Source of the DNA: Patescibacteria group bacterium
GTDB lineage: Bacteria > Patescibacteriota > Minisyncoccia > Phycocordibacterales > JBAYGS01
DNA length: 49,351 bases
Assembly: GCA_038078755.1 (NCBI GenBank)
Contig: JBBTSQ010000025.1
Span: 7,099 to 56,449 of the forward strand
Reading direction: 5' to 3'
Position numbers and translations under genes: made by a program. The notes under the pieces are model-generated. The model was not told the DNA's origin and searched no databases. It saw only the letters and a list, made by a program, of their open reading frames with translations. Below, piece after piece: positions 15,789-46,877 of this stretch (its first letter is position 1; each line of letters begins with the position of its first letter).

Positions 15789-16217
15789 ATGACACTACCT
15801 ACAATGCAGAAAAAAGAATATGTTGCGTTTATATTTGCCCACTTCGCGCTCTTTGTGGTGTTCGTGTGGTTTGGTTCACTGAAATTTTTTGACTTAAGTC
15901 CTGCCAACCCCCTCGTTGATGCCCTCCTCAAAGAAACCTTGCCGTTCATTTCTTTCAACACCTTCATTATGATTTTGGGTGGATGGGAGGTGCTGATCGG
16001 TGTTCTGTTTATCATCCCAAAGATGGAGAAAATAGCACTGATCCTTTTGATTCCGCATATGGTGGTGACCATTATGCCTCTGTTTCTTTTGCCTGATATT
16101 GCGTGGAAAGGATTTTTAACCCCAACCCTTGAGGGTCAGTACATTATTAAAAACATCGTTATCATCGCTCTCGCCGCCTCTATGTTTGCGGATTTGAGGA
16201 AGAAGCATTTGAAATAG
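15789..16217 (+). CDS. DoxX/YkgB-like (DUF417-like) membrane protein
   Basis: 142 aa with four TM helices. The FVWFGSLKFFDLSPANPLV pattern resembles that family from memory. Confidence 0.45.
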   Translation: MTLPTMQKKEYVAFIFAHFALFVVFVWFGSLKFFDLSPANPLVDALLKETLPFISFNTFIMILGGWEVLIGVLFIIPKMEKIALILLIPHMVVTIMPLFLLPDIAWKGFLTPTLEGQYIIKNIVIIALAASMFADLRKKHLK

Positions 16218-16288
16218 TCTTGGGAAAGAATCTTTATTCGATCCTAATTACATGGAAACACGTCCTCAATAAAAAGTTGAAGGGTTAT

Positions 16289-17167
16289 TTAAAATATGTG
16301 TTCATCCCTATATGGAATTTCAACCTCTTTTAAAATTCCACTATCCCAGTTATAGAAGTATATCTTAGCCTGATGGAGATTTTCTTCTTGGACTTTGAAC
16401 GCTTCTTCTTGAGTTATATTATCTCCCACTAAAATTAAAATTAATTGACTGACACCTAGCGGCGCAAGTTTTGTCTTCTTTCTAGCGATTATAAATCTTA
16501 TGGCCTCATAATTTTTTGAGGATATATACTTTATCTCTATTGCCGTTGGTTTCTTACTATTTTTTAAATATACCACCCCATCGACAATAACACTCTTTTC
16601 ATGATTAGTTATTTTAACTTGAGATTTATATCTATCTGCATATCTGTCAATCAAATTAGTTTGTACCACTTCTTCTATTCGATATATCTTTTGGTATCTC
16701 TTAATAACCTCCTCTTTTGTGGACTTAGGAACAACTTTGTGAACTCCAGTTTCTACATTCAAAGGCTTATCTTTTGTCACCAAACCCTCAATGACTTTAT
16801 CATCCTCCTTGGTCTCCTTTATTCTTTGTTGTTTTATCTCAGATTCAGTGGCACCCTTTATTTTTACTGGCTCACCTTTTACACCACCAGGACCAACCTC
16901 CGTCATTCTATTTCTAATAAAATGATCTATCGCCTCGTGATGTTTTTGAAGTAAAACTAAGCAAATAATGAGAATAGAAGCCGGCCACGATACTAGAACT
17001 AATTTTGTATAATCATTTATTACTAAAAGAAGTTCTGAAATCCTGATTCTCCCACTAAACAGATCAACCATTATCGAGGTGAGTATAAACCAAAAAAAGA
17101 AAGTAAAAATAGCACAAAATGTTTGTTTAATTATTTCTTTAGAAGATTCTGTATTATCTTTTTCCAT
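16289..17167 (-). CDS. membrane-anchored protein with C-terminal PD-(D/E)XK-like nuclease motif (292 aa)
   Basis: Two N-terminal TM helices. The C-terminal segment IEEVV...VIVDGVVYLKNSKKPTAIEIKY gives D-x14-E-x-K. The ORF starts 16 nt after the tRNA-Glu 3' end. Confidence 0.5.
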   Translation of the reverse strand: MEKDNTESSKEIIKQTFCAIFTFFFWFILTSIMVDLFSGRIRISELLLVINDYTKLVLVSWPASILIICLVLLQKHHEAIDHFIRNRMTEVGPGGVKGEPVKIKGATESEIKQQRIKETKEDDKVIEGLVTKDKPLNVETGVHKVVPKSTKEEVIKRYQKIYRIEEVVQTNLIDRYADRYKSQVKITNHEKSVIVDGVVYLKNSKKPTAIEIKYISSKNYEAIRFIIARKKTKLAPLGVSQLILILVGDNITQEEAFKVQEENLHQAKIYFYNWDSGILKEVEIPYRDEHIF

Positions 17168-17183
17168 AAATACTTAAAACCTG

Positions 17184-17255
17184 TGACCCTACGGGGAATC
17201 GAACCCCGATTACAGCCTTGAAAAGGCCGTGTCCTAACCGTTAGACGATAGGGCC
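17184..17255 (-). tRNA. tRNA-Glu (anticodon UUC)
   Basis: GGCCCTATCGTCTAACGGTTAGGACACGGCCTTTTCAAGGCTGTAATCGGGGTTCGATTCCCCGTAGGGTCA. Cloverleaf with loop CTTTCAA; no encoded CCA. Confidence 0.85.
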
Positions 17256-17351
17256 ATACCGAAATGATACTATAGCATTTTTATTATTTATAGGGAAGTG
17301 AAATATGCTTGAGCGGTTGAATAATATAGTGTAATATATACCCAAAGATTC

Positions 17352-18365
17352 ATGTTATCTACTTACATACAATCAAATAAAGATTCTAGTGATTTCTTGA
17401 TAAAAGCCAAACTAGCCACCGGCTCATGGCAAATATTATCCAAAATAACAGGGGTGTCCCCAAGAACTCTTCGTAATTGGTACTTATGCCAATCTTCCAT
17501 ACCCCTCGATAGTCTCAAACTACTAAGTAACCACTTGGGAGTGTCTCTGCCCAAATATAAAGCAATCGACATATTGAGACTAAAAAGAAACGCTGCAAAG
17601 AGAGGCGGCCTAAGACGCATAGCACTTTATGGTAACCCCGGGACAATCACAGGGAGGATAAAAGGTGCATTAAGATCAATAAGGACGCAATCGAAAAATC
17701 CCTATTCACCTTTTATTCAGAAAAAAATCAGCATACCCAAACGTTCATCCCAATTAGCTGAATTTGTTGGAATTTTATTAGGAGATGGTCATGTTGGTAA
17801 ACGACAAATTATAATTTCAATAGGGGCGGACGAATATGGCTATACAAAGTATATTTCTAATTTAAGCTTCAAATTATTTCAGTACCGCCCATCGATAAAA
17901 AAGAAAAACGGAGTAGAGGTGTACACACTAGTCTTTTCTCGTACAGCCCTGGTGACATATATAAAAAAGATCGGACTAACTGATTCACACAAAGTAAAAT
18001 CGCAAAGTAATACTCCCCTTTGGATTCGAAATAACAAGAATTATTCCAAGGCGTGTGTCCGAGGATTATTTGACACTGATGGCTCGTTTTTTATTGATAG
18101 ACACTTAATAAAAAATTCGCTATATTACAATGCGGGTATTGCGTTCACTAATTACTCACTGCCACTACTTAAATTTTTCTACTTTACACTGGTCGCTCGA
18201 GGATTCCATCCAACAGTATCGAGTGGTAAAAATGTGTTTCTGCGACGAGATAACGAAATACGCTACTTTTTCAAAGACATTGGGAGTAATAACCCTAAAC
18301 ATTTAAGAAAATTTAGTGAATTTGTAAACAAATATCCCAAAGGAAAGGTACCGAAGAGGTCATAA
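17352..18365 (+). CDS. double-motif LAGLIDADG homing endonuclease with N-terminal HTH
   Basis: LAEFVGILLGDGHV and CVRGLFDTDGSF motifs. HTH-like ILSKITGVSPRTLRNWY. The last 24 nt overlap tRNA-Ser. Confidence 0.85.
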   Translation: MLSTYIQSNKDSSDFLIKAKLATGSWQILSKITGVSPRTLRNWYLCQSSIPLDSLKLLSNHLGVSLPKYKAIDILRLKRNAAKRGGLRRIALYGNPGTITGRIKGALRSIRTQSKNPYSPFIQKKISIPKRSSQLAEFVGILLGDGHVGKRQIIISIGADEYGYTKYISNLSFKLFQYRPSIKKKNGVEVYTLVFSRTALVTYIKKIGLTDSHKVKSQSNTPLWIRNNKNYSKACVRGLFDTDGSFFIDRHLIKNSLYYNAGIAFTNYSLPLLKFFYFTLVARGFHPTVSSGKNVFLRRDNEIRYFFKDIGSNNPKHLRKFSEFVNKYPKGKVPKRS

Positions 18366-18431
18366 CGGCGCCGACTCGAAATCGGATGGTCGGGTCAAAC
18401 CGGCACGAGGGTTCGAATCCCTCCCTTTCCG
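18342..18431 (+). tRNA. tRNA-Ser (anticodon CGA), long variable arm
   Basis: Acceptor GGAAAGG/CCTTTCC, anticodon loop CTCGAAA, T arm GAGGGTTCGAATCCCTC. Confidence 0.8.
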
Positions 18432-18463
18432 CAGAAACAAAAACCTGCTATCCTGTGCACTAC

Positions 18464-18536
18464 GCGCGGTTAGCTCAGTTGGTAGAGCATCCCCTTGACG
18501 TGGGGAGGGTCAGAGGTTCAAGTCCTCTATCGCGCA
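18464..18536 (+). tRNA. tRNA-Val (anticodon GAC)
   Basis: GCGCGGTTAGCTCAGTTGGTAGAGCATCCCCTTGACGTGGGGAGGGTCAGAGGTTCAAGTCCTCTATCGCGCA. Confidence 0.9.
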
Positions 18537-18563
18537 CCCGAAAAGCGAAGCTAGAAACCACAA

Positions 18564-19796
18564 ATGCTCATCCTCGGCATCGAAACCTCCTGCGACGAAA
18601 CCGCAGTGTGCATAGTATCCGCAACCGGCGATAAAAATTCACCTGTTTTTTCTATACTCGGAAATGCCCTTAATTCCCAGACCAAAATTCACGAGCAATA
18701 CGGCGGCGTCTTCCCCGCTCTGGCAAAACGTGAGCATTCAAAAAATTTGATTCCTTTGTTTAAAAAAGTATTAGAAGAATCAGGTTTTGAAAAAAAACTA
18801 ACAACAAACAACTCACAACAAACAACCAGAGAAGAAATTAAAAAGATGCTCGAAAAAGAACCCGAGTTACTCGAACAATTTTTACACTATCTTCCAACCA
18901 TCGAAAAACCTCCCATCGACGCCATCGCGGTCACCGTCGGTCCAGGACTCGAACCAGCACTCTGGGTTGGTATCAATTTCGCTCGCGCACTTTCCCTCGC
19001 GTGGGGCATTCCAATCATTCCAGTCAATCACATGGAGGGGCACATCATTTCTGTTTTGGTAAACAGAAATGAAATTTCCAATACCCAATTCCCAATTTCC
19101 AATTCAAAAACTAAAGACTATCAACCAATAACTAATAACTCCCCCGTCCTTTTCCCCGCTCTCGCCCTCCTCATCTCCGGAGGTCACACCGAACTCATCT
19201 TGATTGAAAGCTGGGGGAAATACAGCAACATCGGACAGACGAGAGACGACGCAGTGGGCGAAGCGTTTGATAAGGTAGCTCGAATGCTTGGTCTGCCATA
19301 CCCAGGTGGTCCTCAAATTTCCGCACTAGCAGAAATTTCGCGGAACAATGCAGAACAAACGCAGACCAATTTCAAACTTCCTCGCCCAATGCTCCACACT
19401 AAAGATTTTGATTTTTCTTTTTCCGGACTCAAGACTGCGGTGCTCTATCTCCTGAAAGACATTGGTACACCCACCAAAGCAGACAGAGAAACAATCGCCA
19501 GAGAATTTGAAGATGCGGTCACCGAAGTACTTGTCACCAAAACAAAGAAAGCACTAGAACGATATGGGGCACAAACACTGATCATTGGTGGTGGAGTAAT
19601 TGCTAACACACACATCCGGAAAGCATTTGAAAAAATGGTGACCGAATATCCGGACACAGGGCTTTTCTTCCCCAATCTCGCTTTGTCGACCGACAACGCA
19701 GTGATGATTGCCTGCGCCGGCTATATGCAACATCTGACCAAACCTTCAGAATCCACTCGAACGCCACTTGTCGCAAAAGGAAATTTAAGCTTCTAA
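18564..19796 (+). CDS. tsaD: tRNA N6-adenosine threonylcarbamoyltransferase TsaD with two low-complexity insertions
   Basis: GIETSCDETAV, VNHMEGH and ISGGHTELI motifs. At 410 aa it is about 70 aa longer than typical TsaD. Confidence 0.9.
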   Translation: MLILGIETSCDETAVCIVSATGDKNSPVFSILGNALNSQTKIHEQYGGVFPALAKREHSKNLIPLFKKVLEESGFEKKLTTNNSQQTTREEIKKMLEKEPELLEQFLHYLPTIEKPPIDAIAVTVGPGLEPALWVGINFARALSLAWGIPIIPVNHMEGHIISVLVNRNEISNTQFPISNSKTKDYQPITNNSPVLFPALALLISGGHTELILIESWGKYSNIGQTRDDAVGEAFDKVARMLGLPYPGGPQISALAEISRNNAEQTQTNFKLPRPMLHTKDFDFSFSGLKTAVLYLLKDIGTPTKADRETIAREFEDAVTEVLVTKTKKALERYGAQTLIIGGGVIANTHIRKAFEKMVTEYPDTGLFFPNLALSTDNAVMIACAGYMQHLTKPSESTRTPLVAKGNLSF

Positions 19797-37829: not shown

Positions 37830-38081
37830 ATGTATTTCACCTACATTCTTAGATGCGCTGACAACACTCTGTATGTTGGGTGCACAAACAATCTCCCCCG
37901 CCGTCTGCACCAGCACAATAATTCTAAACGAGGAGCCCACTATACCAAAATACGCAGACCGGTTACTTTGAAATATAAAGAAGAATTTGCCACACTGAAA
38001 GAAGCTCGCTCCCGCGAAAGAGAGATAAAAAGCTGGACCAGACAAAAGAAATTAAATTTGATAACATTAAGCCATCTTTGA
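37830..38081 (+). CDS. stand-alone GIY-YIG nuclease family protein (83 aa)
   Basis: MYFTYILRCADNTLYVGCTNNLPRRLHQH...REREIK. Confidence 0.8.
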   Translation: MYFTYILRCADNTLYVGCTNNLPRRLHQHNNSKRGAHYTKIRRPVTLKYKEEFATLKEARSREREIKSWTRQKKLNLITLSHL

Positions 38082-46537: not shown

Positions 46538-46568
46538 GTACACATATATTACTACACTTAAAATTTTG

Positions 46569-46641
46569 AGCCGTTGAGCAGGATTGAACTGCTGACCTCG
46601 TCATTACCAATGACGTGCTCTACCAACTGAGCTACAACGGC
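46569..46641 (-). tRNA. tRNA-Thr (anticodon GGU)
   Basis: GCCGTTGTAGCTCAGTTGGTAGAGCACGTCATTGGTAATGACGAGGTCAGCAGTTCAATCCTGCTCAACGGCT. Confidence 0.9.
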
Positions 46642-46877
46642 AATAATTTTGATTTCAAAAACTTTCTACCCGCGGCTGATTTTAAATACAATTCATGTTT
46701 CCGAGCTTCTACAGAAGTATCATACTCTTTTGTATAAACAACTACCAGATTCTTCATTGCACTCGTAGTCCGAGTGTGTCCACCCCTATGTTCCCCTAGA
46801 CGACGAGAAAGATTGGTTGTCATACCCTTATACAACAAACCCCTCTCATCTTCCAAAACATAGACTGTATATCTCAT
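46632..46877 (-). CDS. stand-alone GIY-YIG nuclease family protein (81 aa)
   Basis: MRYTVYVLEDERGLLYKGMTTNLSRRLGEH...ARKHELYLK. The stop codon lies inside the first 10 nt of tRNA-Thr(GGU). Confidence 0.8.
   Translation of the reverse strand: MRYTVYVLEDERGLLYKGMTTNLSRRLGEHRGGHTRTTSAMKNLVVVYTKEYDTSVEARKHELYLKSAAGRKFLKSKLLPL

Follow-up and report, generated by a model that had tools for sequence, protein, structure and literature searches.

Homing endonucleases are, to our knowledge, thought to persist in essential genes only by way of self-splicing introns or inteins, or else between genes. Enzymes of the LAGLIDADG class make site-specific double-strand cuts at sites of ~20 bp. The stretch of DNA analysed here (hereafter the window; 49,351 nt of a Patescibacteria group bacterium, contig JBBTSQ010000025.1) holds a LAGLIDADG gene whose end lies within a tRNA-Ser gene. 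How does such a gene come to share sequence with a tRNA gene, and was the tRNA gene its target? We conclude, with a probability of about 0.78, that positions 17322-18365 (1.04 kb) form an intron-less homing-endonuclease cassette that sits within the tRNA-Ser(CGA) gene and has overwritten its 5' third.

The enzyme and its sequence context

The endonuclease ORF lies on the plus strand at 17352..18365, begins with ATG and encodes 337 aa. The first-pass annotation had given this length and had started the feature at 17256; a plus-strand ORF of 337 aa is present, but it starts at 17352, and 17256 is the first base past the neighbouring tRNA-Glu. Both LAGLIDADG motifs reported earlier were recovered, ILLGDGHV (D145; codon at 17784-17786) and GLFDTDGSF (D243; codon at 18078-18080), and the two predicted catalytic Asp residues are invariant in a 43-member family alignment. 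The profile search proposed in the first pass matched Pfam LAGLIDADG_3 (PF14528; 26.6 bits, cut-off 22.5), in the second domain only. An AlphaFold2 model of the 337-aa protein (pLDDT 91.6; <50 for residues 333-337) showed a double LAGLIDADG fold with the tandem alpha-beta-beta-alpha-beta-beta-alpha arrangement. Using this model in Foldseek, we observed that the best solved matches were the TliVMA intein endonuclease (7qsu; E 1.7e-10), I-Tsp061I (2dch; target-normalised TM-score 0.73) and I-DmoI, and that I-AniI and I-SceI also matched.

The two LAGLIDADG domains (~aa 133-327) follow an N-terminal HTH/helical region (~aa 1-120). An HTH had been proposed there before, and we found a sub-threshold Pfam match to HTH_3 (E = 0.011), weak profile matches to Xre-type repressors and a confident helical domain in the model. 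We obtained a dN/dS of ~0.10 for the ORF against its 68%-identical copy at locus L023. The GC content of the ORF is 0.33-0.42, versus 0.45-0.54 in flanking genes. As judged from its sequence, this ORF encodes an intact enzyme with two LAGLIDADG domains and an additional HTH domain at the N-terminus, predicted to cleave and to home.

No intron core was found by Rfam in the whole window at gathering scores, or in 16800-18900 at E<=10, in agreement with the earlier reading that intron context was lacking. A ribozyme core around the ORF, the mark of a group I/II intron-encoded gene, was not seen. The tRNA is continuous, and the ORF does not form part of a host protein. This LAGLIDADG endonuclease gene lies in neither an intron nor an intein, and in that sense is free-standing. 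It is the only ORF in an insert of ~1 kb, in which no integrase or transposase was found. Integrases duplicate the 3' end of a tRNA; here the duplicated piece is the tRNA 5' end, and the pairing of an integrase with a direct repeat of the tRNA 3' end that marks a tyrosine integrase island was not observed.

A low-GC ORF of 292 aa at 16289-17167 was considered as part of the element and rejected; it has no homolog at the L023, G001 and G002 loci and was therefore treated as separate. We also rejected a viral origin, since IMG/VR held only 11 distant relatives, 21-29% identical and matching in the core only. In NCBIfam no dedicated family was found; only archaeal intein-containing proteins matched, through their endonuclease domains.

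The tRNA genes at the locus and in relatives

To the left of the cassette, and outside it, lies tRNA-Glu(UUC) (17183..17255, minus strand; ARAGORN and Rfam), 100% identical to the copy in the same-genus genome G001. The divergent Glu/Ser(CGA) pair is conserved in this order, recurring in G001, G002, G008, G034, G037, G054, L023 and L030. The next segment, 17256..17292, aligns with the G001 and L023 spacers and is the surviving part of the old Glu/Ser spacer. Divergent promoters probably lie here, one candidate being TGCTATAGT (17269-17277, minus strand). A promoter scan gave only a 9/12 match, at 17298-17325. The cassette leader (17322..17351, plus strand) is AT-rich, and we saw no evident Shine-Dalgarno sequence in it.

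On the right, tRNA-Ser(CGA) occupies 18342..18432 on the plus strand without interruption (ARAGORN; Rfam, 47.5 bits), and tRNA-Val(GAC) follows at 18464-18538 on the same strand (ARAGORN and Rfam). We confirmed the overlap described in the first-pass annotation: the last 24 nt of the ORF (18342-18365, GGAAAGGTACCGAAGAGGTCATAA) are the first 24 nt of tRNA-Ser(CGA). This dual-use segment (18342..18365, plus strand) reads as the last seven codons and the stop (GKVPKRS*) and also as tRNA positions 1-24, with the TAA stop at positions 22-24. These positions form the acceptor 5' strand, the D-stem 5' strand and the D-loop, and the segment is the replacement 5' module of the tRNA. Relatives use the same frame with a G[KGE]VPK[RW]S tail in the family alignment, and the -24 overlap recurs at L023, L026, L028, L033, L048 and L050. 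The genome has 39 tRNAs, among which this is the sole tRNA-Ser(CGA), and of its five tRNA-Ser genes only this one carries an endonuclease. The endonuclease-linked tRNAs are the genome's only Ser(CGA) and its only Tyr, in keeping with retained function.

Between the old spacer and the leader we identified a probable decayed, stranded 5' fragment of a former tRNA-Ser (17293..17321, plus strand; GGGAAGTGAAATATGCTTGAGCGGTTGAA) that ends in the D-loop. It matches positions 7-23 of the resident-type tRNA-Ser(CGA) of G001 at 14/17 bases with a 5-nt insertion (shuffle p = 0.004; sense score 11 versus antisense 5), and it is conserved in the same place at L023. Similar decayed fragments occur in G002, G054 and L030. 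To search more widely, we used a library of 145 tRNA-Ser 5' ends with an antisense control. At 10 of 77 loci a fragment covering tRNA-Ser positions 1 to 20-28 was found upstream of the ORF with a score above every antisense control; the other 67 had no fragment above control scores. The sense score exceeded the antisense score in 53 loci versus 19 with the reverse (Wilcoxon p = 3e-6). A search for partial tRNAs with an nhmmer tRNA-Ser profile gave only weak matches, none significant by itself (E 5-21), a short way upstream of several ORFs. When we looked upstream of the ORFs for a direct repeat of the linked tRNA's first 40 nt, the only strong hits were complete tRNA-Ser(UGA) genes, in the Omnitrophota and Planctomycetota arrays noted below. 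These data suggest, from sequence comparison, that the endonuclease sits inside a former tRNA gene and not merely beside a tRNA.

We next consider the linked tRNAs themselves. Two tRNA D-arm alleles were seen in Nitrospira: one in the genomes that carry the endonuclease, with the ORF intact in five and truncated in one, and the other in four empty genomes (6/6 versus 0/4). At tRNA positions 1-7 and 28-88, any differences are limited to a few bases of the variable arm. The truncated copy stands beside an intact tRNA. No stranded fragment was found at the Nitrospira loci, where the left break lies in the upstream gene. Within this genus, presence of the endonuclease goes with replacement of the tRNA segment from position 1 to ~27. 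The linked tRNA of G054 is likewise chimeric, matching the resident type only from position 28 on. Among linked Ser(CGA) tRNAs of the clades near the window, D-arm identity is 0.76, versus 0.57 among unlinked ones; for the rest of the tRNA the values are 0.71 and 0.68.

The tRNA-Ser(CGA) of the window is identical to the L023 copy at 88/92 positions. It cannot be aligned with that of G001 and gives no BLAST match there, although 23 tRNAs are at least 95% identical between the two genomes. Nor did BLAST match Ser-GGA, Ser-UGA, Gly-UCC or Ala-GGC in G001, and for Thr-CGU it gave a partial match at most. Between this genome (G000) and G001 the difference extends over the whole tRNA-Ser(CGA), beyond positions 1-27, and downstream synteny is not shared either; a larger replacement or a rearrangement would look the same here as co-conversion. 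We also evaluated the window-type D-arm as a marker of occupancy in this order and rejected it, because G008 carries this D-arm without an endonuclease, at an empty site.

The Glu/Ser(CGA) site is occupied in this genome, G002, G054, L023 and L030. The comparison with relatives suggested in the first pass revealed an uninterrupted tRNA-Glu/tRNA-Ser junction with a normal tRNA in G001, G008, G037 and G034 (spacers of 77, 66, 68 and 108 nt); G001 belongs to the same genus. The gene is thus polymorphic for presence at one homologous site among related genomes, and not an ordinary resident gene conserved at the locus, an outcome that the first pass had named as contrary to its reading. Homologs were found in 9 of the 61 genomes of the order and were missing from 52. 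Several families have the gene at the Glu/Ser(CGA) site. In G002 the same spacer also holds a partial tRNA-Glu duplicate.

The tie to tRNA genes extends well beyond this order. We took the 80 best relatives from public genomes, which span several phyla. In 73 of them a co-oriented tRNA-Ser starts between -148 and +40 nt relative to the ORF stop, and at one further locus (L034) the tRNA-Ser is cut by the contig end. This supports, and sharpens, the earlier suggestion that tRNA genes act as landing pads. Short paralogues sit before tRNA-Tyr, among them the genome's own paralogue (56.6 bits against Pfam LAGLIDADG_3), which adjoins its only tRNA-Tyr. We mapped the linked tRNA onto the endonuclease tree and counted 19 changes, compared to 51.6 with shuffled labels (0/200 shuffles as low); clade and tRNA anticodon go together. 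Even endonucleases with just 30-40% identity keep the same position. Approximately 997 clusters at 50% identity reach E<=1e-30, and species-representative genomes hold at least 559 loci. Records carry the labels Patescibacteria, Omnitrophota, Nitrospirota, Planctomycetota and others, and Omnitrophota and Planctomycetota have Ser(UGA)-[endonuclease]-Ser(CGA)-Ser(GGA) arrays. Overall, the association of this protein family with tRNA-Ser (and tRNA-Tyr) genes holds across phyla. Full-text literature searches returned no paper on LAGLIDADG genes tied to tRNA-Ser genes. The two GIY-YIG ORFs noted earlier in the window are real (Pfam GIY-YIG, E 3e-19 and 5e-10) and near tRNA genes: one (46632-46877, minus strand) overlaps the 5' end of tRNA-Thr(GGU) by 10 nt, and the other (37830-38081, plus strand) starts 130 nt past tRNA-Gln.

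Proposed mechanism and alternative readings

We propose that the enzyme cuts endonuclease-free tRNA-Ser alleles near the D-loop/D-stem boundary (~positions 20-28). Double-strand-break repair from an occupied allele would then copy in the leader, the ORF and the replacement 5' module, which would comprise the acceptor 5' strand and the whole D-arm. The rest of the tRNA may sometimes be copied by co-conversion, as appears to be so in this genome. The rebuilt tRNA would stay functional, and splicing would be unnecessary because a spare copy of the displaced part comes with the element. The occupied allele would be immune to cutting, we propose, because its D-arm differs. The old 5' end would remain upstream together with the native promoter, from which the ORF and the tRNA are probably now transcribed jointly.

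An unlikely alternative is that the HTH-LAGLIDADG gene is a domesticated resident, no longer selfish, that serves the adjacent tRNA gene, for example as a DNA-binding regulator of its promoter or a maturase-like helper for the ORF-tRNA transcript, and is kept by host selection. The strong purifying selection (dN/dS ~0.10), the extra HTH domain, the recurrence at the Glu/Ser(CGA) site in several families and the deep conservation of position across endonucleases 30-40% identical would all fit such a role, and LAGLIDADG maturases do exist, with the bI3 maturase and I-AniI among the fold-search matches. A resident helper is harder to reconcile with the lack of a homolog in 52 of 61 related genomes, with a site that is empty beside a normal tRNA in four relatives, and with the single endonuclease among five tRNA-Ser genes. 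Both catalytic Asp residues are invariant, one Nitrospira genome keeps a truncated copy beside an intact tRNA, and the stranded fragments and replaced D-arm are what insertion scars would look like.

It is less probable still that the endonuclease is a passenger, riding along with, or settling after, a site-specific recombinase or small gene-end-replacing elements of this phylum that disrupted the tRNA. Such an origin draws on the partial tRNA-Glu duplicate in the G002 spacer, on tRNA genes being classic integrase targets, and on a case in which a stranded tRNA fragment and a new copy were ascribed to an integrase-type element (Sugahara et al. 2012, PMC3293823). Against it, the ~1 kb insert holds the endonuclease ORF alone, without integrase or transposase. 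The 3' end of this ORF is the tRNA 5' module, endonuclease clades track the tRNA anticodon, and it is the 5' end that is duplicated, not the 3' end as with integrases. We assign a similarly very low probability to a plain free-standing endonuclease in the spacer, whereby the resident tRNA is untouched, the fragment is a chance similarity and the 24-nt overlap an accident of the first stop codon. The window's fragment is indeed weak, most loci have none, stop positions in relatives vary from -148 to +40, and G008 has the window-type D-arm without an endonuclease. Chance would nevertheless have to account for the shared fragment in the same place at L023, ten unambiguous fragments at other loci, chimeric tRNAs in G054 and Nitrospira with a break at ~position 27/28, and a window tRNA-Ser(CGA) that is not the sister species' gene.

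Returning to the cassette reading, we consider the odds slightly better than even that it represents a distinct class of intron-less homing element. Elements of this class would invade long-arm (class II) tRNA genes, tRNA-Ser and tRNA-Tyr, and overwrite the 5' third with a carried module, which in some clades doubles as the ORF's last codons and stop. They would thereby spread D-arm alleles horizontally between species and phyla. RNase P, in cleaving the joint transcript, would separate the ORF from its stop codon and so link translation of the ORF to tRNA 5' processing.

Relation to known systems and significance

The best structural and sequence matches of the window enzyme are the archaeal rRNA-intron and intein LAGLIDADG enzymes. 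In those systems an intron or intein keeps the host gene working. The monomeric double-motif members (I-Tsp061I, 2dch; I-DmoI; TliVMA, 7qsu) share its fold and paired catalytic acidic residues, but the window enzyme has an extra N-terminal Xre-like HTH domain and, without an intron or intein, brings a replacement gene segment. The Allomyces atp6 element, reportedly described by Paquin et al. in 1994, is said to be a fungal mitochondrial mobile endonuclease ORF that replaces a gene end. The window resembles elements of this type in an ORF fused to or abutting the host gene, a foreign terminal replacement and an old segment left as a pseudo-fragment. However, they replace the 3' (C-terminal) end of organelle protein genes, whereas the window cassette replaces the 5' third of a bacterial tRNA gene.

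Phage T4 SegB is a free-standing GIY-YIG homing endonuclease encoded in the T4 tRNA gene cluster, a case of 'intronless homing' (PMC2330249), and like the window gene it stands among tRNA genes. We take as a likeness that SegB recognises a conserved tRNA-gene motif, that its donor allele differs from the target, and that gene conversion carries it, along with neighbouring tRNA sequence, into genomes lacking SegB (PMC2330249). SegB differs in being a phage enzyme whose recognition site is the T-psi-C stem-loop and whose gene has intact tRNA genes on either side (PMC2330249). The window enzyme is a LAGLIDADG of cellular genomes with only distant relatives in viral contigs, and its cassette is lodged inside one tRNA gene, where the ORF end doubles as the tRNA 5' end and a 5' fragment is left stranded.

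At tRNA-Thr(GGU) of Caldiarchaeum subterraneum, an insertion of ~1.9 kb stranded a fragment of the tRNA and gave rise to a new copy (Sugahara et al. 2012, PMC3293823), and a feature at position 24/25 varies within the population (PMC3293823). The likeness is an insertion at a tRNA gene with a stranded fragment; unlike the window, this locus is archaeal, its element is of integrase type according to the authors, its new copy has an intron, and a homing endonuclease is not mentioned (PMC3293823). LAGLIDADG endonucleases have also been reported in insertion sequences of CPR rRNA genes (PMC11270868). These share the host phylum, the enzyme superfamily and a conserved RNA gene as target, but they lie in intervening sequences of rRNA genes, and tRNA is unmentioned (PMC11270868).

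For annotation, our data suggest that overlaps between such ORFs and tRNAs, and stranded fragments, should not be taken for errors or pseudo-tRNAs. The enzymes are compact and their natural targets predictable, which makes them possible meganuclease scaffolds. The element would represent a third solution for an essential RNA gene, in which the element carries a spare copy of the displaced part. It would also act unseen as a driver of turnover in tRNA-Ser sequences and a source of stray tRNA fragments, and may explain differences in tRNA-Ser genes between close relatives.

The LAGLIDADG ORF in the tRNA-Ser(CGA) gene

The 337-aa LAGLIDADG ORF (17352-18365, plus strand) is flanked by tRNA-Glu(UUC) (17183-17255, minus strand), tRNA-Ser(CGA) (18342-18432, plus strand) and tRNA-Val(GAC) (18464-18538, plus strand), each called by both ARAGORN and Rfam. 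As proposed in the first-pass annotation, the ORF shares its 3' end with tRNA-Ser(CGA): its final 24 nt (GGAAAGGTACCGAAGAGGTCATAA) are tRNA positions 1-24, and its TAA stop falls within the D-loop. The assignment of the product as a LAGLIDADG protein and the absence of intron context were upheld. The product scored above the Pfam LAGLIDADG_3 cut-off and has two motifs with D145 and D243, both invariant across a 43-member alignment; an Rfam search returned no intron core. The AlphaFold2 model (pLDDT 91.6) contained two LAGLIDADG domains after a confident N-terminal helical/HTH domain, with the final five, tRNA-encoded residues disordered. Foldseek ranked the TliVMA intein endonuclease, I-Tsp061I, I-AniI and I-DmoI highest, and a profile search of PDB sequences agreed, with additional weak matches to Xre-type HTH domains.

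GC content was lower at 16250-18350 (about 0.31-0.42) than in the surroundings (0.45-0.54). Directly after tRNA-Glu lies a low-GC ORF of 292 aa (16289-17167, minus strand) for which no Pfam match exceeded the cut-off and no homolog was present at the counterpart loci in a Taylorbacteria genome (L023), the same-genus genome (G001) or another relative (G002). This ORF appears to be an island gene of its own. The window also encodes two small, single-domain GIY-YIG proteins of 81 aa (46632-46877, minus strand) and 83 aa (37830-38081, plus strand). The former ORF overlaps the 5' end of the co-directional tRNA-Thr(GGU) (46568-46641) by 10 nt, the same geometry as that of the LAGLIDADG gene and tRNA-Ser; the latter begins 130 nt past tRNA-Gln.

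At least 559 relatives of the endonuclease turned up across species-representative genomes, and we surveyed the loci of the best 80, from records labelled Patescibacteria, Omnitrophota, Nitrospirota, Planctomycetota and others. The earlier suggestion that tRNA genes act as landing sites was supported: in 73 of the 80 loci a co-oriented tRNA-Ser (anticodon CGA, UGA, GGA, GCU or ACU) started −148 to +40 nt from the ORF stop. The exceptions were one locus with the tRNA lost at a contig end, three with an opposite-strand tRNA-Ser, one with tRNA-Arg and two with none nearby within the contig. The tRNA start mostly lay 0-60 nt (at most 69) past the equivalent of residue 321. The ORF stop varied among relatives, and some ORFs ran through the entire tRNA. 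We mapped the identity of the linked tRNA onto a maximum-likelihood tree of 90 endonucleases: it required 19 changes, compared to 51.6 for shuffled labels, and none of 200 shuffles was as low. Among 1.84 billion cluster representatives, a profile search matched 997 at E ≤ 1e-30. Viral contigs held only distant relatives, and an NCBIfam search found no family dedicated to these endonucleases.

Homologs occurred in 9 of 61 genomes of the order, nearly all adjoining a tRNA gene. One paralogue is present in the window's own genome (G000; 792 kb, 46 contigs): a 276-aa HTH-LAGLIDADG protein (Pfam LAGLIDADG_3, E 3e-15) at contig C43:3270-4150 (locus L002 1408-2286, minus strand). Its ORF immediately precedes tRNA-Tyr(GUA), the only tRNA-Tyr of the genome, and extends 38 nt into that gene, with a TAA stop that overlaps the anticodon. 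Together with the tRNA-Tyr-linked copies of G010 and G002 it formed one clade, and the tRNA-Tyr group was a single clade on the 90-endonuclease tree. A D-arm-like piece, GGGTACTTTAGTGGAAGTAC, ~55-75 nt upstream of the paralogue's ATG may be a stranded fragment.

Empty sites and stranded tRNA fragments

The divergent tRNA-Glu/tRNA-Ser(CGA) pair is an old feature of the window's order. We observed that the site was empty in the same-genus genome (77-nt spacer) and in G008, G037 and G034 (66, 68 and 108 nt, respectively). It was occupied in the window, with 1086 nt separating the two tRNAs, and in L023, G002, L030 and G054, with endonucleases 68%, 41%, 41% and 38% identical to the window's, respectively. 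This distribution points to a site-specific mobile gene and not an ordinary resident gene.

Searching upstream for a second copy of the 5' end of the linked tRNA itself returned only complete neighbouring tRNAs. For each of 77 ORFs, we compared the 260 nt upstream with 145 tRNA-Ser 5' ends and scored the matches, with antisense as the control. Sense exceeded antisense in 53 loci and the reverse held in 19 (p = 3e-6). Ten loci exceeded every antisense control, with clean fragments spanning tRNA positions 1 to 20-28 and ending 7-94 nt upstream of the ORF. In the window, 17293-17321 (GGGAAGTGAAATATGCTTGAGCGGTTGAA) aligned with the G001-type tRNA over positions 7-23, with 14 of 17 bases matching (shuffle p = 0.004). 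L023 shares this fragment, down to its 5-nt insertion, and similar decayed pieces were present in G002, G054 and L030. The window fragment ends in the D-loop, likewise the location of the ORF stop in the new tRNA. These sequence data indicate that the endonuclease gene is inside a former tRNA gene, beyond mere adjacency.

Gene order around the pair also varied. The tRNA-Glu/endonuclease/tRNA-Ser/tRNA-Val block was inverted relative to the flanking orf142 and tsaD when the window (15789-19796) was compared to L023, and in G001 tRNA-Val-tsaD and tRNA-Glu/tRNA-Ser were on separate contigs. In locus L003 (G002:C2), the space between tRNA-Glu and the endonuclease holds a second, partial tRNA-Glu copy (46 nt, 98% identical). 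GC-rich structured sequence separates it from the full-length tRNA-Glu, ~145 nt away.

Replacement of the tRNA 5' module

Between G000 and G001, 23 of 39 tRNAs were at least 95% identical and tRNA-Glu was 100% identical, whereas BLAST of the linked G000 tRNAs, Ser(CGA) and Tyr, gave no match at all in G001. The tRNA-Ser(CGA) that G001 does carry is of another type, which resembles the stranded fragment; the entire tRNA-Ser(CGA) differed from the window's, as did the downstream synteny. The window and L023 showed the opposite picture, with tRNA-Ser identical at 88 of 92 positions and tRNA-Glu at only 61 of 75. The linked tRNA of G054 matched the resident type from position 28 onward only. Pairwise identity of the D-arm segment GTACCGAAGNGGTYATAACGG was 0.76 in window-near clades compared to 0.57 in unlinked Ser(CGA) tRNAs; the remainder of the tRNA did not differ (0.71 linked, 0.68 unlinked). 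G008 has an empty site yet a window-type D-arm; this allele is either native somewhere or outlasts endonuclease loss.

Most other G000 tRNAs were 95-100% identical in G001. BLAST against G001 also gave no match for tRNA-Ser(GGA), Ser(UGA), Gly(UCC) and Ala(GGC), and at most a partial one for Thr(CGU); further tRNA replacement or assembly gaps may account for these. A tRNA-Ser(ACU), with A at position 34, was called by ARAGORN at G000 contig C2:6167-6254, 185 nt from tRNA-Ser(GCU) and 95% identical in G001.

We also compared one locus across ten Nitrospira genomes (upstream gene 86-94% identical in nine, ~75% in G074). The tRNA-Ser(UGA) D-arm was TAGGAAAGCGGTTTAATCCT in the five genomes with an intact 335-aa endonuclease (G061, G081, G100, G064, G074) and in G070, where it is truncated to 73 aa; in the four empty genomes (G082, G090, G080, G069) it was TGCTAGAGTGG[T/C]CGAATAGA. 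Positions 1-7 and 28-88 were alike in both groups, except for a few variable-arm bases, and one occupied genome retains the empty-type variable arm. The mobile unit therefore ends, on its right side, at about tRNA position 27. This is the cleanest case of module replacement, and it fixes the cassette's right end. No stranded fragment was found at the Nitrospira locus; the left break is within the upstream gene. The G070 copy (L120, G070:C268) has an internal deletion of ~0.5 kb that left the first 73 endonuclease codons, and its adjacent tRNA-Ser(UGA) keeps the endonuclease-type D-arm. It looks like a decay stage of the homing cycle.

Proposed mechanism and known systems

We observed the anatomy of the insert, its site specificity, its presence/absence polymorphism and the replaced module. 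In the mechanism we propose, the enzyme would cut endonuclease-free tRNA-Ser alleles near the D-loop/D-stem boundary. Repair would then copy in the leader, ORF and new 5' module, with a variable extent of co-conversion, and the new D-arm would confer immunity to cutting. A tentatively assigned old promoter, lying upstream of the stranded fragment, may drive a joint ORF-tRNA transcript, from which RNase P would free the tRNA, removing the ORF stop codon.

Gene-end replacement is a known trick of fungal mitochondrial mobile ORFs. Among working systems, T4 SegB comes nearest: this free-standing endonuclease recognises a motif in tRNA and, in spreading, takes tRNA genes with it. It differs in being GIY-YIG, phage-borne, located between genes and directed at the T-arm (PMC2330249). 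In Caldiarchaeum, a stranded tRNA fragment with a new copy was attributed to an integrase (PMC3293823). tRNA goes unmentioned in a study of endonucleases within CPR rRNA genes, and our literature searches found no description of this tRNA-Ser-linked LAGLIDADG family. The mechanism proposed here would be a form of intron-less homing, which is already known. For this family, the window is a bacterial example in which the sister genome's site is empty.
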